42,106 nt of DNA from Candidatus Pacearchaeota archaeon (GCA_002687255.1 NYZR01000013.1:1-42106), one strand, 5' to 3'; shown: positions 3,881 through 37,654, counted from the first letter of the stretch. The notes: a model not told the origin generated them from the sequence alone. Translations and numbers: made by a program.

Positions 3881-4495
3881 ATGAGAGCAGTTGGCACAGA
3901 AGCGCAGCTTGATCGGAGTAGAAAGCGGAATGGGATTATTATTAGTGTGTTGATGTTAGTGTTGTTGGTGGCTAGCTCTGTTGGGTTTGCTTTTCTTTCG
4001 AGTAATCATACGAGTGGTTCTCAGCAAGTTGCTGGGTCTGAGGGCGCTTATGAGGGTTCTGGTGTTGGGGGTTGGGTAGTTCCTGTTCTTGGTCGGGAAG
4101 TAAGGTTGACGTTTGGTCTTGAAGAAGTTGCTGAGATCCCTGTTGCTTTGACGACAGGTATAGAAGCGTATCAAGGGAAGACCTTGTATCTTGCGGTGGA
4201 GAATCCTGGGATCGAGGCAGAGTTGCGGAGCACTATTGGAGTCTTCACTGATCGGATTCAATTGGCTTGCTACGGGGAATGTGAGTTGGATTTGCCGGAG
4301 AAGGATTGTTCGGAGAACGTGATTGTCTGGACGGATGGCGTTGCCGAAGCAAGTTCGGCAGGCCCTCGCAGCTCGGACAAGGTGAACGCTGCTTCGGACG
4401 TTGGCGGGCAGGTGACGCAGGGAGAAGGGTGTGTGTTTATTGAAGGAGATTTAAGGGCTGTTGATGCTTTTCTTTATAAGGTGTTTGGTTACTAA
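3881..4495 (+). CDS. membrane-anchored hypothetical protein (possible class III/pilin-like signal KRNG-IIISVLMLVLLV) carrying an in-frame repeat insertion
   Basis: 204-aa ORF with a TATA at -25, an N-terminal TM segment and a Cys-containing ectodomain. Paralog of 4565..5209. Confidence 0.6.
   Translation: MRAVGTEAQLDRSRKRNGIIISVLMLVLLVASSVGFAFLSSNHTSGSQQVAGSEGAYEGSGVGGWVVPVLGREVRLTFGLEEVAEIPVALTTGIEAYQGKTLYLAVENPGIEAELRSTIGVFTDRIQLACYGECELDLPEKDCSENVIVWTDGVAEASSAGPRSSDKVNAASDVGGQVTQGEGCVFIEGDLRAVDAFLYKVFGY
4343..4399 (+). repeat. structured 57-nt repeat, copy E1 (in frame, 19 codons)
   Basis: GCCGAAGCAAGTTCGGCAGGCCCTCGCAGCTCGGACAAGGTGAACGCTGCTTCGGAC. Near-identical to 36926..36982, and its core is related to 27934..27998 and 12286..12320. 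Confidence 0.7.
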
Positions 4496-11825: not shown

Positions 11826-12227
11826 TTATTCTGCCGGTGTGCCTGAGCCGCCGATAAAATCAGTCTTTTCGGGTTTGTCTTGGGAGATGTGGGTCTTGTG
11901 GATTTCTGCGAATTGTGGGGTTGCGATGAGGGTGTTTTCTCCGAAGCCGGCGATGGATCCTGACATGGCGTCCACAGTCTTTTTGACTTTTGCTACGGCT
12001 CGCTTGAGTTCGATGACGTCTTTCTTTTTGAGGGGATTGATGTCTATGACTGCTATGGTGTAGCCGTCCCTTAATGCTGAGAGAACATGATTAGCGTCGT
12101 CGAAGTTTTTCAGAACAAATGGCTTGACTTGGACTTTGTTTTCCTCCTTGGGGGTGTTATTGACGTCTATCTCTAGGAACTCTTCTTCGTCGTCTTTCCC
12201 GAACATTTTTTTGAAATCGAAGGCCAT
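11826..12227 (-). CDS. sepF: SepF-like cell-division protein (FtsZ anchor)
   Basis: VKPFVLKNFDDANHVLSALRDGYTIAVIDINPLKKKDVIELKRAVAKVKKTVDAMSGSIAGFGENTLIATP matches the SepF/DUF552 core pattern. Confidence 0.7.
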   Translation of the reverse strand: MAFDFKKMFGKDDEEEFLEIDVNNTPKEENKVQVKPFVLKNFDDANHVLSALRDGYTIAVIDINPLKKKDVIELKRAVAKVKKTVDAMSGSIAGFGENTLIATPQFAEIHKTHISQDKPEKTDFIGGSGTPAE

Positions 12228-12250: not shown

Positions 12251-12336
12251 TTTAAAGATTTGTGTGATGAACGCAAATCCTAGACTCTCGCCGCTCACAC
12301 CTCATGAGCGCAGCATCGAGTTTAAAGATTTGTGTG
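12251..12336 (+). repeat. repeat copy E2 (54-nt insert) flanked by a perfect 16-bp direct duplication TTTAAAGATTTGTGTG
   Basis: Identical 16-mers lie at 12251-12266 and 12321-12336. The insert at 12267-12320 ends with CTCGCCGCTCACACCTCATGAGCGCAGCATCGAG, which matches 30/34 with the core of 27934..27998. Confidence 0.6.
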
Positions 12337-12400: not shown

Positions 12401-12706
12401 ATGCTGTTTCCCTTTGTTTGTATGGCAAGCGATCTAACTTGTGCGGCATGCGAAGGCATTATCTCTGGGGGATATGTTATTGTTGGGCGTGCTGGCAGTC
12501 GTTCAGATTCAGGAGAGGTGGTGTTACATGCAGAATCATTGAGAGAGGAGGCCGAGGAGGTTGCTGTTACTTTGAAAGCTATGGAGGATCCTGGGAGTTG
12601 TATTGGAAGGTATATTCATGAAGATGACAGGCGAAATCTTTATCATCCTGAGGTTGTTCATTTTGATAGAGTTGGAGTTGGGCAGGGAACAGAAAGGGTA
12701 GTTTAG
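12401..12706 (+). CDS. hypothetical protein (start uncertain; possibly MASDLTCAACEG at 12422)
   Basis: 101-aa ORF convergent with prefoldin and overlapping it by 4 nt. No family recognised. Confidence 0.35.
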   Translation: MLFPFVCMASDLTCAACEGIISGGYVIVGRAGSRSDSGEVVLHAESLREEAEEVAVTLKAMEDPGSCIGRYIHEDDRRNLYHPEVVHFDRVGVGQGTERVV

Positions 12707-25273: not shown

Positions 25274-25984
25274 ATGGTTACAGTGAAGAAAGGCGATTAT
25301 GTGTCGGTGGAGTTTAGTGGTTACACGGATGGCGAGTTATTTGATTCGAATGTTGCTAAGGATTTGAAGAAGCTTGATCCGGAGGGCAAGCAAGAGGCTA
25401 AGCCTCTTGAAGTGATTGTTGGGGAGGGGATGGTTGTTCCTGGGTTTGATGCTGGGTTGGAAGGGGCCGAGGTGGGGAAGGAAAAGAAGATAGAGGTTTC
25501 TGCTGCTGAGGGTTATGGTGAGAGGCATAAGAGTCTTGTTAGGGTGATTCCGTTGAAAGTGTTTACGGAGCAGAATGTGACTCCGCAGCCAGGGATGTCT
25601 CTTATGCTTCAACAGGGAATGATGAAGATTTTGTCTGTCGGTGGCGCTCGGGTGACGGCTGATATGAATCATCCTCTTGCAGGGAAGGATTTGACTTTTA
25701 CTTTTGTGGTGAAGAAGAAGATCACTGATGAGAAAGCAAAAGTTGGGTTGGTTTTGAAGATGTTGTTTAGGCAGGTTCCTTCTCATAGGGTTGAGGATAA
25801 TGCCAAGGAAGCTAGTTCCTCGGACACCTCAAACACCAAGAAAGGTGATGGTGTTCGAGGGAGGGTTGTGGTTGAAGGGCCTAAGGCGTTGGAGCAGTTT
25901 GTTGCTGCTTTTGGGGAGAAGTTCAAGGGGTTGGTTGGGAAGGATTTGGCTTGGGAAGAGAAGGACGAAAAGAAAAGTAACTAG
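25274..25984 (+). CDS. FKBP-type peptidyl-prolyl isomerase (SlyD-like with insert-in-flap) plus a basic/acidic tail
   Basis: VKKGDYVSVEFSGYTDGELFDSN...VIVGEGMVVPGFDAGLEGAEVGKEKKIEV...DMNHPLAGKDLTFTFVV. Confidence 0.8.
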   Translation: MVTVKKGDYVSVEFSGYTDGELFDSNVAKDLKKLDPEGKQEAKPLEVIVGEGMVVPGFDAGLEGAEVGKEKKIEVSAAEGYGERHKSLVRVIPLKVFTEQNVTPQPGMSLMLQQGMMKILSVGGARVTADMNHPLAGKDLTFTFVVKKKITDEKAKVGLVLKMLFRQVPSHRVEDNAKEASSSDTSNTKKGDGVRGRVVVEGPKALEQFVAAFGEKFKGLVGKDLAWEEKDEKKSN

Positions 25985-26676: not shown

Positions 26677-26841
26677 GATTATCTCCTGTGGAATTAACTT
26701 TTAAAACTTCTTCTTTTACTTCCTGTCGTATTACTACAACAATTCTTATAAACACGATAACTCTGGAGACAAGATGACGAAGAATCAGAGATTCTTCGGC
26801 TTGCAAACTCCTGACGGCCGGGCGTCGGGAAGGAGTTAGCA

Positions 26842-27948
26842 ATGGCCGAGGATGACGTTGTTGTTGAGTCACAAGAAGGGCCTCCGGCAGGGAGTGATAT
26901 CGATCAGGAATTGGAGAGTTTGTTGCAGCAGCAGAGCACTCGAGTGAAAGTGGTTGGGTGTGGTGGGGGTGGGGGCAACTGCGTAAGTCGGATGAAGGAG
27001 ATTGGTATTAAAGGGTGTGAGATTCTGGCCATTAATACGGATGCGCAGGACTTGTTGTATACGAATGTAGACGGGAAGATTCTTGTGGGGCGGGAGCTGA
27101 CAAGCGGTCTTGGAGCGGGGAGTAATCCGAAGATCGGAGAAGAGGCGGCTCGGGAGAGTGAGGCAGAGATTAAGAAGAAGTTGGCGAAGAGCGATATGGT
27201 CTTTATTACCTGCGGTTTGGGTGGAGGGACGGGCACCGGGGCGGCGCCGGTGGTTGCGGAGTTGGCGAAGAAAGGGGGGGCGTTGACGATTGGTGTAGTT
27301 ACCTTGCCGTTTACGGTTGAGGGGCAGAAGCGAATTGAGAACTCGCAGTATGGCCTGGATAAGATGGCTTCTACTTGTGATACCTTGATTGTGATTCCGA
27401 ATGATAAGTTGTTGGAGTTGGCTCCGGAGTTGCCCATTCATACGGCGTTTAAAGTGGCTGACGAGATTCTGACGAATGCGGTGAAGGGGATTACGGAGTT
27501 GATTACCAAGTCTGGTTTGGTGAATTTGGATTTTGCGGATGTGAAGGCGGTGATGTCTCATGGCGGCGTTTCTTTGATTGGTATTGGCGAGTCGGATACG
27601 CAGGAGCGGGCGAAGGATGCTGTGGATAAGGCGATTAACAATCCTTTACTTGATGTAGATATTTCTCAGGCTCAGGGGGCGTTGGTGAATATTATTGGAG
27701 GGAATGATATGTCGTTGGAAGAGTATAAGCAGGTGATGGAGGTGATCGGGACGAAGGTAGCGCCGGATGCGAAGTTGATTTCTGGGGCGCACATCTCGCC
27801 GGATTTGGAGAATACGATTAAGGTGTTGTTGATTGTGACTGGTGTAAAGAGTTCTCAGATTGTTGGGGCAGAGGATGGGATTGGGGTGAGTGAGACGCAG
27901 GCTTTGGAGAAGGAGTTGGGGATTGATTTCGTTGCCGATGATCGCTAG
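26842..27948 (+). CDS. ftsZ: cell division GTPase FtsZ
   Basis: GCGGGGGN, the tubulin signature [13 protein letters not shown], and NTDAQ. GGAAGGAG Shine-Dalgarno upstream. Confidence 0.95.
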
Positions 27949-27998
27949 GCGATCATCGGCTCCTCGCTGCTCACACCGCATGAGCGCAGCTTCGGATG
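27934..27998 (+). repeat. structured repeat copy E3 spanning the ftsZ stop codon
   Basis: GCCGATGATCGC-TAG-GCGATCATCGGC forms a perfect 12-bp stem with the stop codon in the loop. It is followed by TCCTCGCTGCTCACACCGCATGAGCGCAGCTTCGGATG, the core shared with E1, E2 and E4. Confidence 0.65.
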
Positions 27999-28015
27999 AT
28001 GACGACAGGTAAACC

Positions 28016-28450
28016 ATGAAAATAGAAGCACTTAACGAAGAAGGAATGAATCGCCTGAGATTGCTCGCCCAGTCTGAGTTGACATTAACGTTAGGTGCCA
28101 CGGAAGAGTTTCCTCATGTGCCTTCGTCATTGCTCCTGAGTTTTAGTGGGAGATATAGTCCTTATTTCTGCGGGGCTCTCCTTCCTGTTTTTTCTCTTGC
28201 TCCTGGCGATGAGCATCCTCTTGGGTATTCTTTTAGACAGAGGGTTGATACTCCTCTCCTAAGTAATGTTGTTGATTTCGTCTCCCCTCCCAATGGATCA
28301 GTCACTCGTATCTCTCTTTTTGCTGGACCATATGAACTCCATCGTCAGCAAGAGACCTTCCTTAAAAGAGGGATTGATTATGTTGAGATGTCTACAGAAG
28401 ACTATCTTGCTCTTGTGAGGGATTCAAGAGAGGGAGATGTTGCTGTTTGA
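28016..28450 (+). CDS. hypothetical protein co-transcribed with ftsZ
   Basis: 144-aa ORF with no TATA between it and ftsZ. No family recognised. Confidence 0.5.
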   Translation: MKIEALNEEGMNRLRLLAQSELTLTLGATEEFPHVPSSLLLSFSGRYSPYFCGALLPVFSLAPGDEHPLGYSFRQRVDTPLLSNVVDFVSPPNGSVTRISLFAGPYELHRQQETFLKRGIDYVEMSTEDYLALVRDSREGDVAV

Positions 28451-28495
28451 AGAGAGCACCGAAACGTTTAAATACGTAATGCACGTAATGCACTT

Positions 28496-28717
28496 ATGGT
28501 TAGTATGACGTTAGCGATACCTGAAGATATGAAGAAGGAACTTGATGAGTTTCCTGAGATGAATTGGAGCGAAGTAGCTCGGGCTGCGATGCGGAAGAGG
28601 CTTGAGTTTCTCAAACAGATTAAGGAATTTACGAAGGACAGTGAGATGACGATGGAAGATGCGATTGAGTTAGGTCGGAAAGTTAATAAGGGTCTTGCTC
28701 GGAGATACCGAAAATAA
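28496..28717 (+). CDS. small ribbon-helix-helix-like protein
   Basis: MTLAIPEDMKKELDEFPEMNWSEVARAAMRKRLE resembles a CopG/RHH N-terminus. GTTTAAATAC lies 25 nt upstream. Confidence 0.5.
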   Translation: MVSMTLAIPEDMKKELDEFPEMNWSEVARAAMRKRLEFLKQIKEFTKDSEMTMEDAIELGRKVNKGLARRYRK

Positions 28718-28840
28718 GTAAGAATTTTGTCAGTCTTGGATGCGCCTAAAGATTTGGGTTGCCTGCGTGGAGGAGGAGGAGGAGCATAATGAACATTAGG
28801 ATGAGAGGCCATTGATCTTTAATGAATTTTATTATTGGGT

Positions 28841-29035
28841 TCATTTTCTTTTCCCTCTTAGGTAATACAGGAACATAAGATGGAAATCTATATAAATGAT
28901 TGCCCAAAGAGTGACTTCGAGGAACGTTGGTTCCCTGATTTGGTATAGGTAGTATATTAGAGCTATGAGGACTCCGAGAAATGTGGAGAAGGCAATCATG
29001 CTGGTTGCGATCGCTGTTATTTCTTTCGTGTTCAT
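28841..29035 (-). CDS. small two-TM membrane protein
   Basis: 64-aa hydrophobic ORF with a TATA-like CCTTATAG about 25 nt upstream. Confidence 0.4.
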   Translation of the reverse strand: MNTKEITAIATSMIAFSTFLGVLIALIYYLYQIREPTFLEVTLWAIIYIDFHLMFLYYLRGKRK

Positions 29036-29117
29036 TTCTTTGGTTGAAAGATCATAGCTATAAGGATTTGCGTGATGGAACGCATAGGTTTAAAAGTTCC
29101 TAGTTTTTTAGTTGCTT

Positions 29118-29294
29118 ATGGGAGTTGGAGAGAAGATCGGGAGTTTTTTTGTGCAGTGTCGGCGGGTGTGGCACGTCCTCCGAAAACCGACGGGTGAGGA
29201 GTTTGCGTCGATTGCGAAGGTGTCAGCGATTGGGATTGCTGGGATTGGGCTGATTGGGTTTATTATTTCTGACGTCATAAAATTTTTCACCTAG
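29118..29294 (+). CDS. secE: protein translocase subunit SecE/Sec61-gamma
   Basis: FFVQCRRVWHVLRKPTGEEFASIAKVSAIGIAGIGLIGFIISDVIKFF is typical of archaeal SecE. GGTTTAAAAG lies 25 nt upstream of the ATG at 29118. Confidence 0.75.
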   Translation: MGVGEKIGSFFVQCRRVWHVLRKPTGEEFASIAKVSAIGIAGIGLIGFIISDVIKFFT

Positions 29295-29423
29295 GTTCAA
29301 AATTTTAGAACCCCAAGGATTCACTCATGGCTTGAACATCCTTGGAGTTATTAAGTTCTTTACGTAGTTATGCATACAGAGACAAAGCACAAACCTATTA
29401 AATAATCCATGAGGTCTGTATAC

Positions 29424-36816: not shown

Positions 36817-36892
36817 GTCGGGGTGAAGGTTTGGGTTTATATAAATGTAAGGATCGGGGAAGTTTTATAAAGCAATTTTTTCTTTGTGGGTG

Positions 36893-37654
36893 ATGTCGAG
36901 CGTTGTAAAGAAGATTTTTGACACTGCCGAAGCAAGTTCGGCAAGCCCTCGCAGCTCGGACTCTGTGAACGCTGCTTCAGATGGAGAAATTGATGAAGAG
37001 GTGCATGGGGCGTTGGTGAAATTTAGTAAGGGGTCTTTTCCGGATAGATGGTTAGTTGAGTCGAAGAAGCAGAAAGATAAGTGGGCGGTGAAGACGAGTG
37101 CGGAGTTTGCGAATTTTCTTGTTCGGGAATGTTTGCCTGCTGAGGGGAATGTGGAGGTGAAGGGTGTTGTTGTTTCTACGGAGAAGCTTGCTGATGTGTT
37201 GGATTTGCCTGTGGAGCGGGTGAAGCAGTTTATGGGAATCAAGCAGAATATTATTTCTGGGGAGATTGAAGTTGAGAAGATTCGGGAGGCTATGGAGAAA
37301 TACCCTCGGGCGTTTTTTGCGTTGTCGTTTTCTACGGATGATTGTGTCTTGAAGATCAAAGCAAAGGCACCGAAGAGTGCGAAGCCGAGCACGAAGGGCG
37401 ATAAGGAAGTGAAGATTGATTTTTGTTCGGTGAAGACGACTAACGAAGAGTTGGTGAGGGATTTGTTGTTCGATTGTCTTGCTGCGAAGCACGTGAGGGT
37501 GTCACATGAGTTTGTTATTTCTGAGATTGAGTTGCCTGCTGGTGTTGAGGATCCTGTGGAGATTCGAGAGAGGGCTGTTCGGAAGGGTGTGTTGAAGCGG
37601 ACTGTTGTTGCTGATGGTGCTGAGAAGCAGAGTGAAGCAGAGTTTGCTGCTTAG
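36893..37654 (+). CDS. hypothetical protein carrying repeat copy E4 near its N-terminus
   Basis: ATG lies about 25 nt downstream of GTTTTATAAAG. The 253-aa ORF has no recognised family. Confidence 0.55.
   Translation: MSSVVKKIFDTAEASSASPRSSDSVNAASDGEIDEEVHGALVKFSKGSFPDRWLVESKKQKDKWAVKTSAEFANFLVRECLPAEGNVEVKGVVVSTEKLADVLDLPVERVKQFMGIKQNIISGEIEVEKIREAMEKYPRAFFALSFSTDDCVLKIKAKAPKSAKPSTKGDKEVKIDFCSVKTTNEELVRDLLFDCLAAKHVRVSHEFVISEIELPAGVEDPVEIRERAVRKGVLKRTVVADGAEKQSEAEFAA
36926..36982 (+). repeat. structured 57-nt repeat, copy E4 (in frame, 19 codons)
   Basis: GCCGAAGCAAGTTCGGCAAGCCCTCGCAGCTCGGACTCTGTGAACGCTGCTTCAGAT. Encodes AEASSASPRSSDSVNAASD, against AEASSAGPRSSDKVNAASD in E1. Confidence 0.7.

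Follow-up and report, generated by a model that had tools for sequence, protein, structure and literature searches.

The stretch of archaeal DNA analysed here, 42,106 nt of a Candidatus Pacearchaeota archaeon (GCA_002687255.1 NYZR01000013.1:1-42106; hereafter the window), carries an ftsZ gene of the FtsZ1 type whose last codons lie within E3, one copy of a short two-hairpin repeat family (Table 1). The window is contig C13 of a 789-kb source assembly (54 contigs, 46% G+C, 63% complete), and because the FtsZ homologues are labelled Pacearchaeota or Nanoarchaeota, we place the host among the DPANN archaea. The ftsZ product matches its own genome at 100% and shares 62-81% identity with the FtsZ proteins of 30 relatives, and the Pfam Tubulin and FtsZ_C domains are present on the FtsZ homologues. 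The gene terminates in the codons GTT GCC GAT GAT CGC TAG, with a codon start at 27934, so that the reading frame enters the element on a codon boundary and reads ADDR-stop, as a preliminary description of this DNA had stated. In agreement with the same description, the element's first arm, GCCGATGATCGC, is perfectly complementary to GCGATCATCGGC and the ftsZ stop codon TAG forms the 3-nt loop between them, in what is the longest perfect local hairpin of the whole window. A second hairpin, the family core, follows, and immediately beyond it lies a second ftsZ-like ending, DDDR-stop, which is out of frame.

Table 1. Coordinates of the features discussed in the text (R1, covariance model of the repeat family; ORF, open reading frame).
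Feature	Position	Strand	Evidence and remarks
ftsZ, FtsZ1 type, 368 aa as now read	26842..27948	+	ORF list; final 15 nt (27934-27948) belong to the insert
Conserved C-terminal peptide E-L-G-I-D-F-V	27913..27933	+	Native, untouched; GID at 27919-27927
E3 insert	27934..27997	+	64 nt by canonical family ends (GCC...TTCGGAT); absent from the sister lineage, GTG/GAT GAT GAT AGG TAA; R1 59.8 bits
E3 hairpin 1	27934..27960	+	Perfect 12-bp stem 27934-27945/27949-27960; loop TAG 27946-27948
E3 hairpin 2 (family core)	27962..27995	+	RNAalifold consensus, single-sequence fold, pair counts
Displaced native ftsZ tail	27998..28012	+	GAT GAC GAC AGG TAA, DDDR-stop; out of frame, untranslated
Second lineage-specific insert, not part of E3	28013..29087		1,075 nt; follows the native ftsZ stop and precedes the secE promoter (GTTTAAAAG at 29088)
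E1	4340..4401	+	In frame within ORF 3881-4495; R1 77.3 bits
E2	12267..12323	+	40 nt upstream of sepF (11826-12227, minus strand); R1 51.7 bits
E4	36923..36984	+	In frame within ORF 36884-37654; R1 71.6 bits

An empty ftsZ site in a sister lineage

The state of the gene without the element is preserved in a sister lineage, represented by contigs L055-L057 for the ftsZ locus (three contigs) and L060 for gyrA, whose FtsZ (P0001) shows 96% amino-acid and 85.6% nucleotide identity to that of the window. There the gene ends GAG TTG GGG ATT GAT TTT GTG GAT GAT GAT AGG TAA, followed by gtttaaaag, with secE 30 nt on and no element; the contigs thus read GATTTTGTG, then GAT GAT GAT AGG TAA and then the secE promoter, whereas the window reads GAT TTC GTT-GCCGATGATCGCTAGGCGATCATCGGCTCCTCGCTGCTCACACCGCATGAGCGCAGCTTCG(GAT)-GAT GAC GAC AGG TAA. 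The GAT repeat leaves the junction ambiguous, and E3 shortens to 61 nt (to 27994) if its final GAT is native, in which case 27995-7 plus the displaced tail would read DDDDR-stop. The displaced tail differs from the tail in use in the sister by two synonymous third-position changes, and the Arg and stop codons are identical. Two independent Tara Oceans metagenome assemblies agree exactly over the locus, so the insert is not an assembly artefact. Scaffolds of this population come from SAMEA2619974 and ERR594345, and the sister is present in JGI 3300050006. Furthermore, a comparison of FtsZ1 C termini in 17 genomes of the same family shows that the protein ends in ...EELGI(E/D)F(F/L/V/Y) plus 1-7 mostly acidic residues, and neither the E3 hairpin nor its core occurs in any of the 17 genes.

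At the level of the aligned sequences, the empty site shows that the element entered ftsZ after the split from the sister lineage, between the Val following GIDF and the native DDDR-TAA. The claim of the preliminary description that the repeat copy supplies the last four codons and the stop codon of ftsZ is thereby borne out, and the alignment of FtsZ C termini that it had called for identifies ADDR as element-derived, the sister reading VDDDR at the empty site. The opposite polarity, in which ADDR would be native and DDDDR imported, is rejected on two counts: the element in its canonical form has GTTGCCGA as its 5′ end, and it is the downstream tail, not the one in use, that has the sister's Arg and stop codons and differs from its tail only synonymously. 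Delivery of the new tail by a foreign ftsZ patch through homologous recombination is not supported either, as the 3′ 280 nt of ftsZ are the most sister-like part of the gene (93-94%). A search of the rest of the genome for a donor of GATGATCGCTAG found none.

The FtsZ protein and the loop stop

The SepF-binding peptide of the archaeal FtsZ C-terminal domain has a near-invariant GID motif at its centre (PMC8178401). E3 starts two residues past GID and leaves the motif intact; ELGI(E/D)F(F/L/V/Y) is kept in the 17 same-family genomes and in close homologues, and only the variable tail of the protein is altered, from VDDDR in the sister to VADDR. The earlier suggestion that the element remodelled the extreme FtsZ C terminus, the partner-binding peptide of other organisms, thus applies to the tail alone, the partner-binding GID peptide lying intact upstream of the insert.

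How a stop codon came to lie in the loop can be read from the comparison with canonical family copies (TGCCGAAGCAAGTTCGGCA). The stem base of E3 hairpin 1, GCCGA/TCGGC, is that of the canonical hairpin, and the inner TGATCGC-TAG-GCGATCA is peculiar to E3. Set against GCCGA-A-GC-AAG-T-TCGGC, E3 hairpin 1 is 7 nt longer: its two arms are expanded as mirror images (by TGATC on the 5′ side and GATCA on the 3′ side), there is one additional GC, and the loop has changed from AAG to TAG. By direct sequence comparison, the expansion shifts the frame so that the canonical GC is now read within CGC (Arg), and the altered loop yields the stop. Read in this phase, a canonical 57-nt copy gives AEASSA...SD, the reading also seen in E1 and E4, and would have put 19 residues ahead of DDDR. 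The expanded hairpin with its loop stop may be the tolerated or selected variant, because it restores a short acidic tail ending in Arg.

A lineage-specific family of repeats inside and between genes

Searches of the genome with BLAST and with a covariance model, R1, built from 13 copies yielded 13 strong copies, scoring 52-81 bits, plus two that are weaker. The canonical element is ~57 nt long (61-64 nt in the form of E3) and consists of hairpin 1, most often TGCCGAAGCAAGTTCGGCA, a linker, (A/G)GCCCTCGC, hairpin 2, made up of GCTGC-TCA, a loop, TGA, a 2-nt bulge and GCAGC, and the end TTCGGAY. Genic copies lie in frame in gatB, gatA, topA (on the opposite strand), a ppsA-like gene and two orphan ORFs, in differing frames and on both strands; others occupy the ends of ftsZ, gyrA, a thioredoxin-like gene and an ftsX-like gene, and further copies, E2 among them, are found in promoters. 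Every genic copy has a length of 0 mod 3 and is open in the frame of its host, lengths that are not a multiple of three being confined to non-genic copies. In gatA and gatB, the copies are read in the frame that usually bears TGA; their inner stem is TCC/GGA, and they contain no stop. Alignments to Protein Data Bank (PDB) entries place both of these copies in insertions relative to solved homologues, and the gatB copy falls within a 28-aa insert, NNPSPLPKQVRQALAAPGGSQLRTSAQL, that is missing from the closest GatB homologues (80-85% identity) and from PDB GatB. Such a distribution is that of an insertion element tolerating translation.

The element-bearing GatB insert also holds a third hairpin, GCGGCCTGGAGGCCGC. 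The GatB protein of contig C25 contains, in addition, a 21-aa lineage-specific insertion, PQSSKNFGGDQEPKHGAGFLT, beside its N-terminal Cys cluster and another of ~12 aa near LAGLKKPSTALQSQ, both missing from the closest homologues.

The neighbour of E2 is sepF, a minus-strand ORF with a SepF match (PF04472) at 37.6 bits, and E2 itself is flanked by a perfect 16-bp direct repeat, TTTAAAGATTTGTGTG, that duplicates the TATA region and is reached by 1 of 300 shuffles. ORF 12401-12706 was also considered as a candidate for sepF and has no PDB or Pfam match. The family touches the genes of both FtsZ-SepF partners, at the ftsZ end and in the sepF promoter (12251-12336), which is probably a coincidence.

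Beyond this organism, 300 other genomes of the host's order (122 genera) yielded no real family match, and pattern scans of metagenome and genome collections returned only the same organism (L041, which is the C20 copy) and chance matches in bacteria. The sister lineage carries an orthologous family copy behind its gyrA gene (66.8 bits); the family therefore predates the split, and E3 is younger. As a separate observation, the tail of a FKBP-type gene in the sister contains a related 48-nt two-hairpin in-frame insert (TTCGAGGTCAAAAACCTCGAG TCCTCGGCACCAGGTGCGCCTTCGGAT; L055:2379-2428); the window has an empty site there (~25930-25950), presence and absence being reciprocal between the two lineages.

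Conservation of the two-hairpin structure

In E3 hairpin 2, outer CC/GG pairs (27962-3 with 27994-5) and a GCTGC/GCAGC stem (27966-70 with 27986-90) are followed by a 2-nt bulge (27984-5), an inner TCA/TGA stem (27971-3 with 27981-3) and a loop at 27974-27980. The 37-nt core, CCTCGCTGCTCACACCGCATGAGCGCAGCTTCGGATG at 27962-27998, is unique as an exact word in the window (0 matches in 100 shuffles), and it resembles three other sites at 66-91% identity. We reproduced the earlier count of 27 matches with E1 over these 37 positions. The reciprocal A/T swap reported in the stem (GCTGC...GCAGC vs GCAGC...GCTGC) is equally real, the pair being U-A in 11 copies and A-U in 3 of the family alignment.

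The covariation analysis proposed in the preliminary description was carried out on 15 family sequences, with 500 shuffles and slid controls, in an alignment that is itself fitted to the model. In the resulting structure 93.6% of cells are paired and six of 16 pairs are altered on both sides, with a covariation score of 0.277 against 0.094 in shuffles, none of the 500 shuffles reaching that value and the slid controls remaining at or below 0.079. This covariation supports the presence of two hairpins in the family. Replication errors templated by a hairpin, or template switching, can create paired changes in one step, without selection. Because of such errors the compensatory change is not proof of selection on RNA: of the argument that it reveals a conserved structure, the covarying hairpins stand, and proof of RNA selection does not follow.

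Gene ends with stop codons in hairpin loops

The ftsZ end is not the only one with this configuration. At gyrA (C1:7055-7230), the final codons, CTGAATCGCAA, and an inverted copy of them, TTGCGATTCAG, form an 11-bp hairpin that holds the stop codon TAG in its loop, and this stop hairpin is followed by the family copy and by a second, diverged tail that reads VRVPRDDDVPKVEETSGE-stop against the VKVPRDDGNFPGPESQERN-stop in use. Both gyrA tails resemble that of the sister, in which the whole arrangement is orthologous (L060:3780-3915) and the relic tail differs in length by 21 nt. The sister gyrA, consulted to see which of the two tails is native, thus bears the element as well. In the thioredoxin-like gene (C19:32560-32700), ALKVLSRC-stop lies within hairpin 1 and TFKVLSRC-stop follows past the core (0 of 300 shuffles); the two tails encode a Ser as AGT and TCG, respectively, a three-base synonymous difference that simple duplicate decay explains poorly. 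At the ftsX-like gene, GTGGAGGC...GCCTCCAC encloses the stop codon TGA.

Across the genome, 10 of 731 long ORFs have their stop codon in the loop of a perfect hairpin of 8 bp or more, compared with 10 of 2,924 control positions, a fourfold excess (p = 0.0025). All of the GC-rich cases, namely those at ftsZ, gyrA and the ftsX-like gene, are next to a family copy; in the AT-rich ones, Lys codons appear to pair with T-tract terminators. A 9-bp AT-rich hairpin (TAAAATTTT...AAAATTTTA, 29278-29307) carries the secE stop in its loop.

The region downstream of ftsZ

In the preliminary description, the element was said to fill the space between ftsZ and the next gene. This does not hold: the native neighbour is secE, which now lies 1.1 kb away behind the second lineage-specific insert, at a site where the sister has a 30-nt spacer. 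The 1,075-nt insert encodes ORF 28016-28450 (144 aa, no Pfam match), ORF 28496-28717 (73 aa, RHH_12) and, on the minus strand, a 64-aa membrane ORF; neither a recombinase gene within it nor a repeat flanking it was found. A possible third, decayed ftsZ tail at its right edge (29064-29087) was rejected, as its score is equalled by 36% of shuffles.

ORF 28016 begins 3 nt past the old ftsZ stop; with E3 in place, 67 nt and a strong structure separate the end of ftsZ translation from that downstream start. As stated previously, no TATA-like word occurs between 27949 and 28015, that is, ahead of the ATG at 28016. A scan of 27700-28600 for T-tracts after hairpins revealed none at E3, 27961-28015 containing no T run at all, so that the element does not have the make-up of an intrinsic terminator; likewise, no Rfam family is present in the window at gathering thresholds. 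A putative C/D-box small RNA (ATGATGA at 27995-28001, CTGA at 28056) was discarded: its best Rfam match, sR1 at 27992-28060, reaches 10.6 bits against a gathering threshold of 45 (E = 2.7), and the ATGATGA word from which the match arises corresponds to the Asp codons of the native ftsZ tail. The proposal that E3 acts as a terminator, attenuator or processing site consequently finds no support in the T-tract and Rfam searches, nor in the placement of copies inside essential genes on either strand. Because copies sit inside gatA, gatB, topA and the ppsA-like gene, where such an activity would be harmful, a dedicated role of this kind is unlikely, even when any structural role in place is counted. 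E3 may at most provide a stable 3′ structure and uncouple ftsZ from ORF 28016, and would otherwise have no dedicated role for ftsZ.

Some features of the surroundings are recorded here for completeness. A 9-bp hairpin, CGAAGAATC-AGA-GATTCTTCG, lies at 26778-26798, ~45 nt 5′ of the ftsZ start, and the sister has a near-identical hairpin at the same spot with the loop ATA in place of AGA. Over the whole window (1-42106), GC skew is positive in nearly all 1-kb bins independently of gene orientation, with cumulative skew climbing steadily to 8.6, and T exceeds A, amounting to a strand-wide G+T bias.

Discussion

We propose that E3 is probably the recent insertion of a short, non-autonomous, lineage-specific mobile hairpin element similar to the Rickettsia palindromic elements (RPEs). 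Being stop-poor and a multiple of three in length, such an element could land in coding sequence and be translated. At ftsZ it inserted between the Val and DDDR-TAA, the loop TAG ending translation after the four element-encoded residues ADDR and the native tail and stop being left 3′ of E3 as an untranslated relic; on the best reading, E3 is tolerated in ftsZ because its hairpin loop stops translation. Mobilisation by an enzyme may take place in trans, and insertions at gene ends and promoters may come with target duplication and sometimes with inverted copying.

Several observations weigh against this proposal. The 63%-complete genome contains no Y1 transposase (PF01797, with responding controls) and no TnpB, DDE families not having been searched, and the flanks of the 15 copies show no fixed-length target-site duplication, the repeats ranging from none to ~27 nt. 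E3 itself shares no nucleotide repeat with its target except GATGAT, which falls short of significance. ADDR-stop and DDDR-stop resemble each other too closely for pure chance, and selection accounts for only part of the resemblance. Finally, the gyrA-end hairpins have kept their pairing through two compensatory double substitutions, which could mean a function in place, not selfish DNA; this upkeep may reflect either selection in place or one-step paired changes from hairpin-templated replication errors. Significant flanking repeats are present at E2 (~16 nt), C20 (~12 nt), C19:32595 (~27 nt or more) and C19:7850, and eight canonical copies as well as E3 have none. In copies with a non-canonical hairpin 1, repeats of 12-27 nt or longer overlap the 5′ arm of that hairpin. 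The canonical ends (start GCCGAAGC, end GCTTCGGAC) share a 7-nt inverted match, CCGAAGC, of which E3 retains only CCGA, and which is short and overlaps the hairpins. Altogether, the insertion signature fits no standard cut-and-paste scheme.

The repeats could instead be useful where they are, as folded RNA or a DNA cruciform, with E3 co-opted as a 3′ module of ftsZ that defines, shields or processes the 3′ end of the mRNA, or shapes translation termination through its loop-borne stop codon. The covarying family structure speaks for such a module, as do the gyrA-end copies, which in two lineages of ~85% nucleotide identity keep all stems, including through the two double substitutions, as their loops diverge, and the excess of stops in hairpin loops, the GC-rich ones of which adjoin family copies. 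Template switching, however, makes paired changes in one step and requires no selection, and the AT-rich members of that excess, with their Lys codons and T-tract terminators, are a different thing. Moreover, about half of the copies sit inside coding sequence, on either strand and in essential genes, where ending or cutting the transcript would do harm; oligo-T, by which archaea are known to terminate transcription, is missing; and the sister does without an element at ftsZ. We regard an in-place module as unlikely. A far smaller chance attaches to excision of the element from RNA in the manner of an intron, by which FtsZ would be made with its native DDDR and genic copies would never reach protein. 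Removal of 27934-27997 does restore GTT GAT GAC GAC AGG TAA in frame, and the predicted fold closes the whole element via a short outer helix, UCGUU/GACGA. Yet excision requires neither the frame-keeping, stop-free state of the genic copies nor the loss of TGA from the two copies read in the TGA frame, and the predicted fold of 27925-28015 contains no bulge-helix-bulge (two 3-nt bulges, 4-bp helix), nor is there a match to an Rfam intron family, which leaves this explanation highly improbable.

A further possibility concerns the mode of mobility, namely that the element moves as a folded single strand, hairpin 1 mimicking a duplex target, and is integrated by a host Xer-like tyrosine recombinase. 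The 5′ arm of non-canonical hairpin 1 resembles the sequence just 3′ of the element, as at the end of the thioredoxin-like gene (score 18, 0 of 300 shuffles), at C20 (0 of 300) and, through GATGAT, in E3, and the gyrA and ftsX-like ends bear an extra hairpin formed by the last codons of the gene and their inverted copy. This small genome, in which no Y1 or TnpB was found, encodes three tyrosine recombinases (PF00589; C3:4049-4522, C16:9901-10377 and C11:4522-4998), two of them strong Xer-like matches. Against this stands the identical hairpin 1 of eight copies at unrelated sites, by which the hairpin is not re-made at each insertion; the match between E3 and its target is just 6 nt and not significant, no crossover motif is conserved (GTTGCCG misses the integron R′ consensus GTTRRRY), and no recombinase is linked to any copy. 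We consider integration along this route improbable. The broader idea, that E elements are the smallest members of a DPANN-specific mobility of folded single-strand DNA operating through either an Xer-like recombinase or snap-back repair copying, seems to us only slightly less doubtful; if it were true, insertions at gene ends would automatically bring a new tail and a loop stop and leave the old tail behind.

Returning to the insertion of an RPE-like element as the preferred explanation, E3 is not a dedicated ftsZ regulatory structure; it replaced dispensable last residues of FtsZ. The locus thus offers a dated before-and-after case in which a tiny mobile element gave an essential cell-division protein a new ending without disabling it, in a group of archaea whose mobile DNA is barely described. 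That the FtsZ tail past GIDFV can be swapped marks the dispensable part of the archaeal FtsZ tail and provides a natural set of tail variants for studies of SepF binding. The copies at gyrA, the thioredoxin-like and ftsX-like genes and the sepF promoter present an unusual signature of target duplication, inverted gene end and loop stop that standard transposition does not explain. For genome annotation, there is a practical warning in that short GC-rich hairpin inserts in such genomes can create or shift stop codons.

Comparison with known systems

Among described systems, RPEs are the closest analogue, a statement of likeness and not of membership, as host and size differ. Like the E elements, they are short, palindrome-rich, multicopy and lineage-restricted, have no ORF of their own or evident cognate transposase, and occur both between genes and, repeatedly and without disrupting them, in frame in unrelated housekeeping genes. 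The defining trait, a multicopy palindromic element in frame in unrelated protein genes, was found here in gatA, gatB, topA, the ppsA-like gene and the two orphan ORFs. A review of intragenic prokaryotic miniature inverted-repeat transposable elements that includes RPEs describes no in-frame archaeal case (PMC10969869). The E element differs from RPEs in its size (~57 nt versus roughly 100-150 nt), in its DPANN/Pacearchaeota host, and in the lack of a regular target-site duplication, in place of which it shows, at gene ends and promoters, variable and sometimes long flanking duplications of the target and, in some cases, an inverted gene-end copy that sets the stop in a loop.

Mobile ORFs and cassettes with a replacement C terminus, such as those of fungal mitochondria (e.g., Allomyces atp6) and archaeal integrative elements at the 3′ ends of genes, likewise bring a new ending and stop, by which the invaded gene stays functional, and displace the native ending downstream as a relic, a layout shared by ftsZ and, in extended form, by the gyrA and thioredoxin-like genes. 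E3 differs in being only 61-64 nt long, in containing no gene and in supplying a tail of four residues, which is not a nucleotide copy of the native one (Arg CGC versus AGG, stop TAG versus TAA) and is not accompanied by a foreign ftsZ patch.

Repetitive extragenic palindromic sequences and bacterial interspersed mosaic elements, mobilised by the RAYT family of Y1 HUH transposases, and the palindromes derived from IS200/IS605 are similarly short extragenic hairpin repeats recognised as structures; the E elements, by contrast, have no GTAG head, occur inside genes and reside in a genome without Y1 or TnpB. The attP(+) site of CTX-phi, which acts at dif, and integron attC sites resemble the E family as bulged hairpins of variable sequence and conserved structure in genomes with tyrosine recombinases, a parallel that goes no further than resemblance: unlike attC sites, E copies are dispersed rather than arrayed and have no conserved core-site motifs (R″/R′, RYYYAAC/GTTRRRY), and no integron integrase was identified among the recombinases, whose type is resolved only to PF00589.

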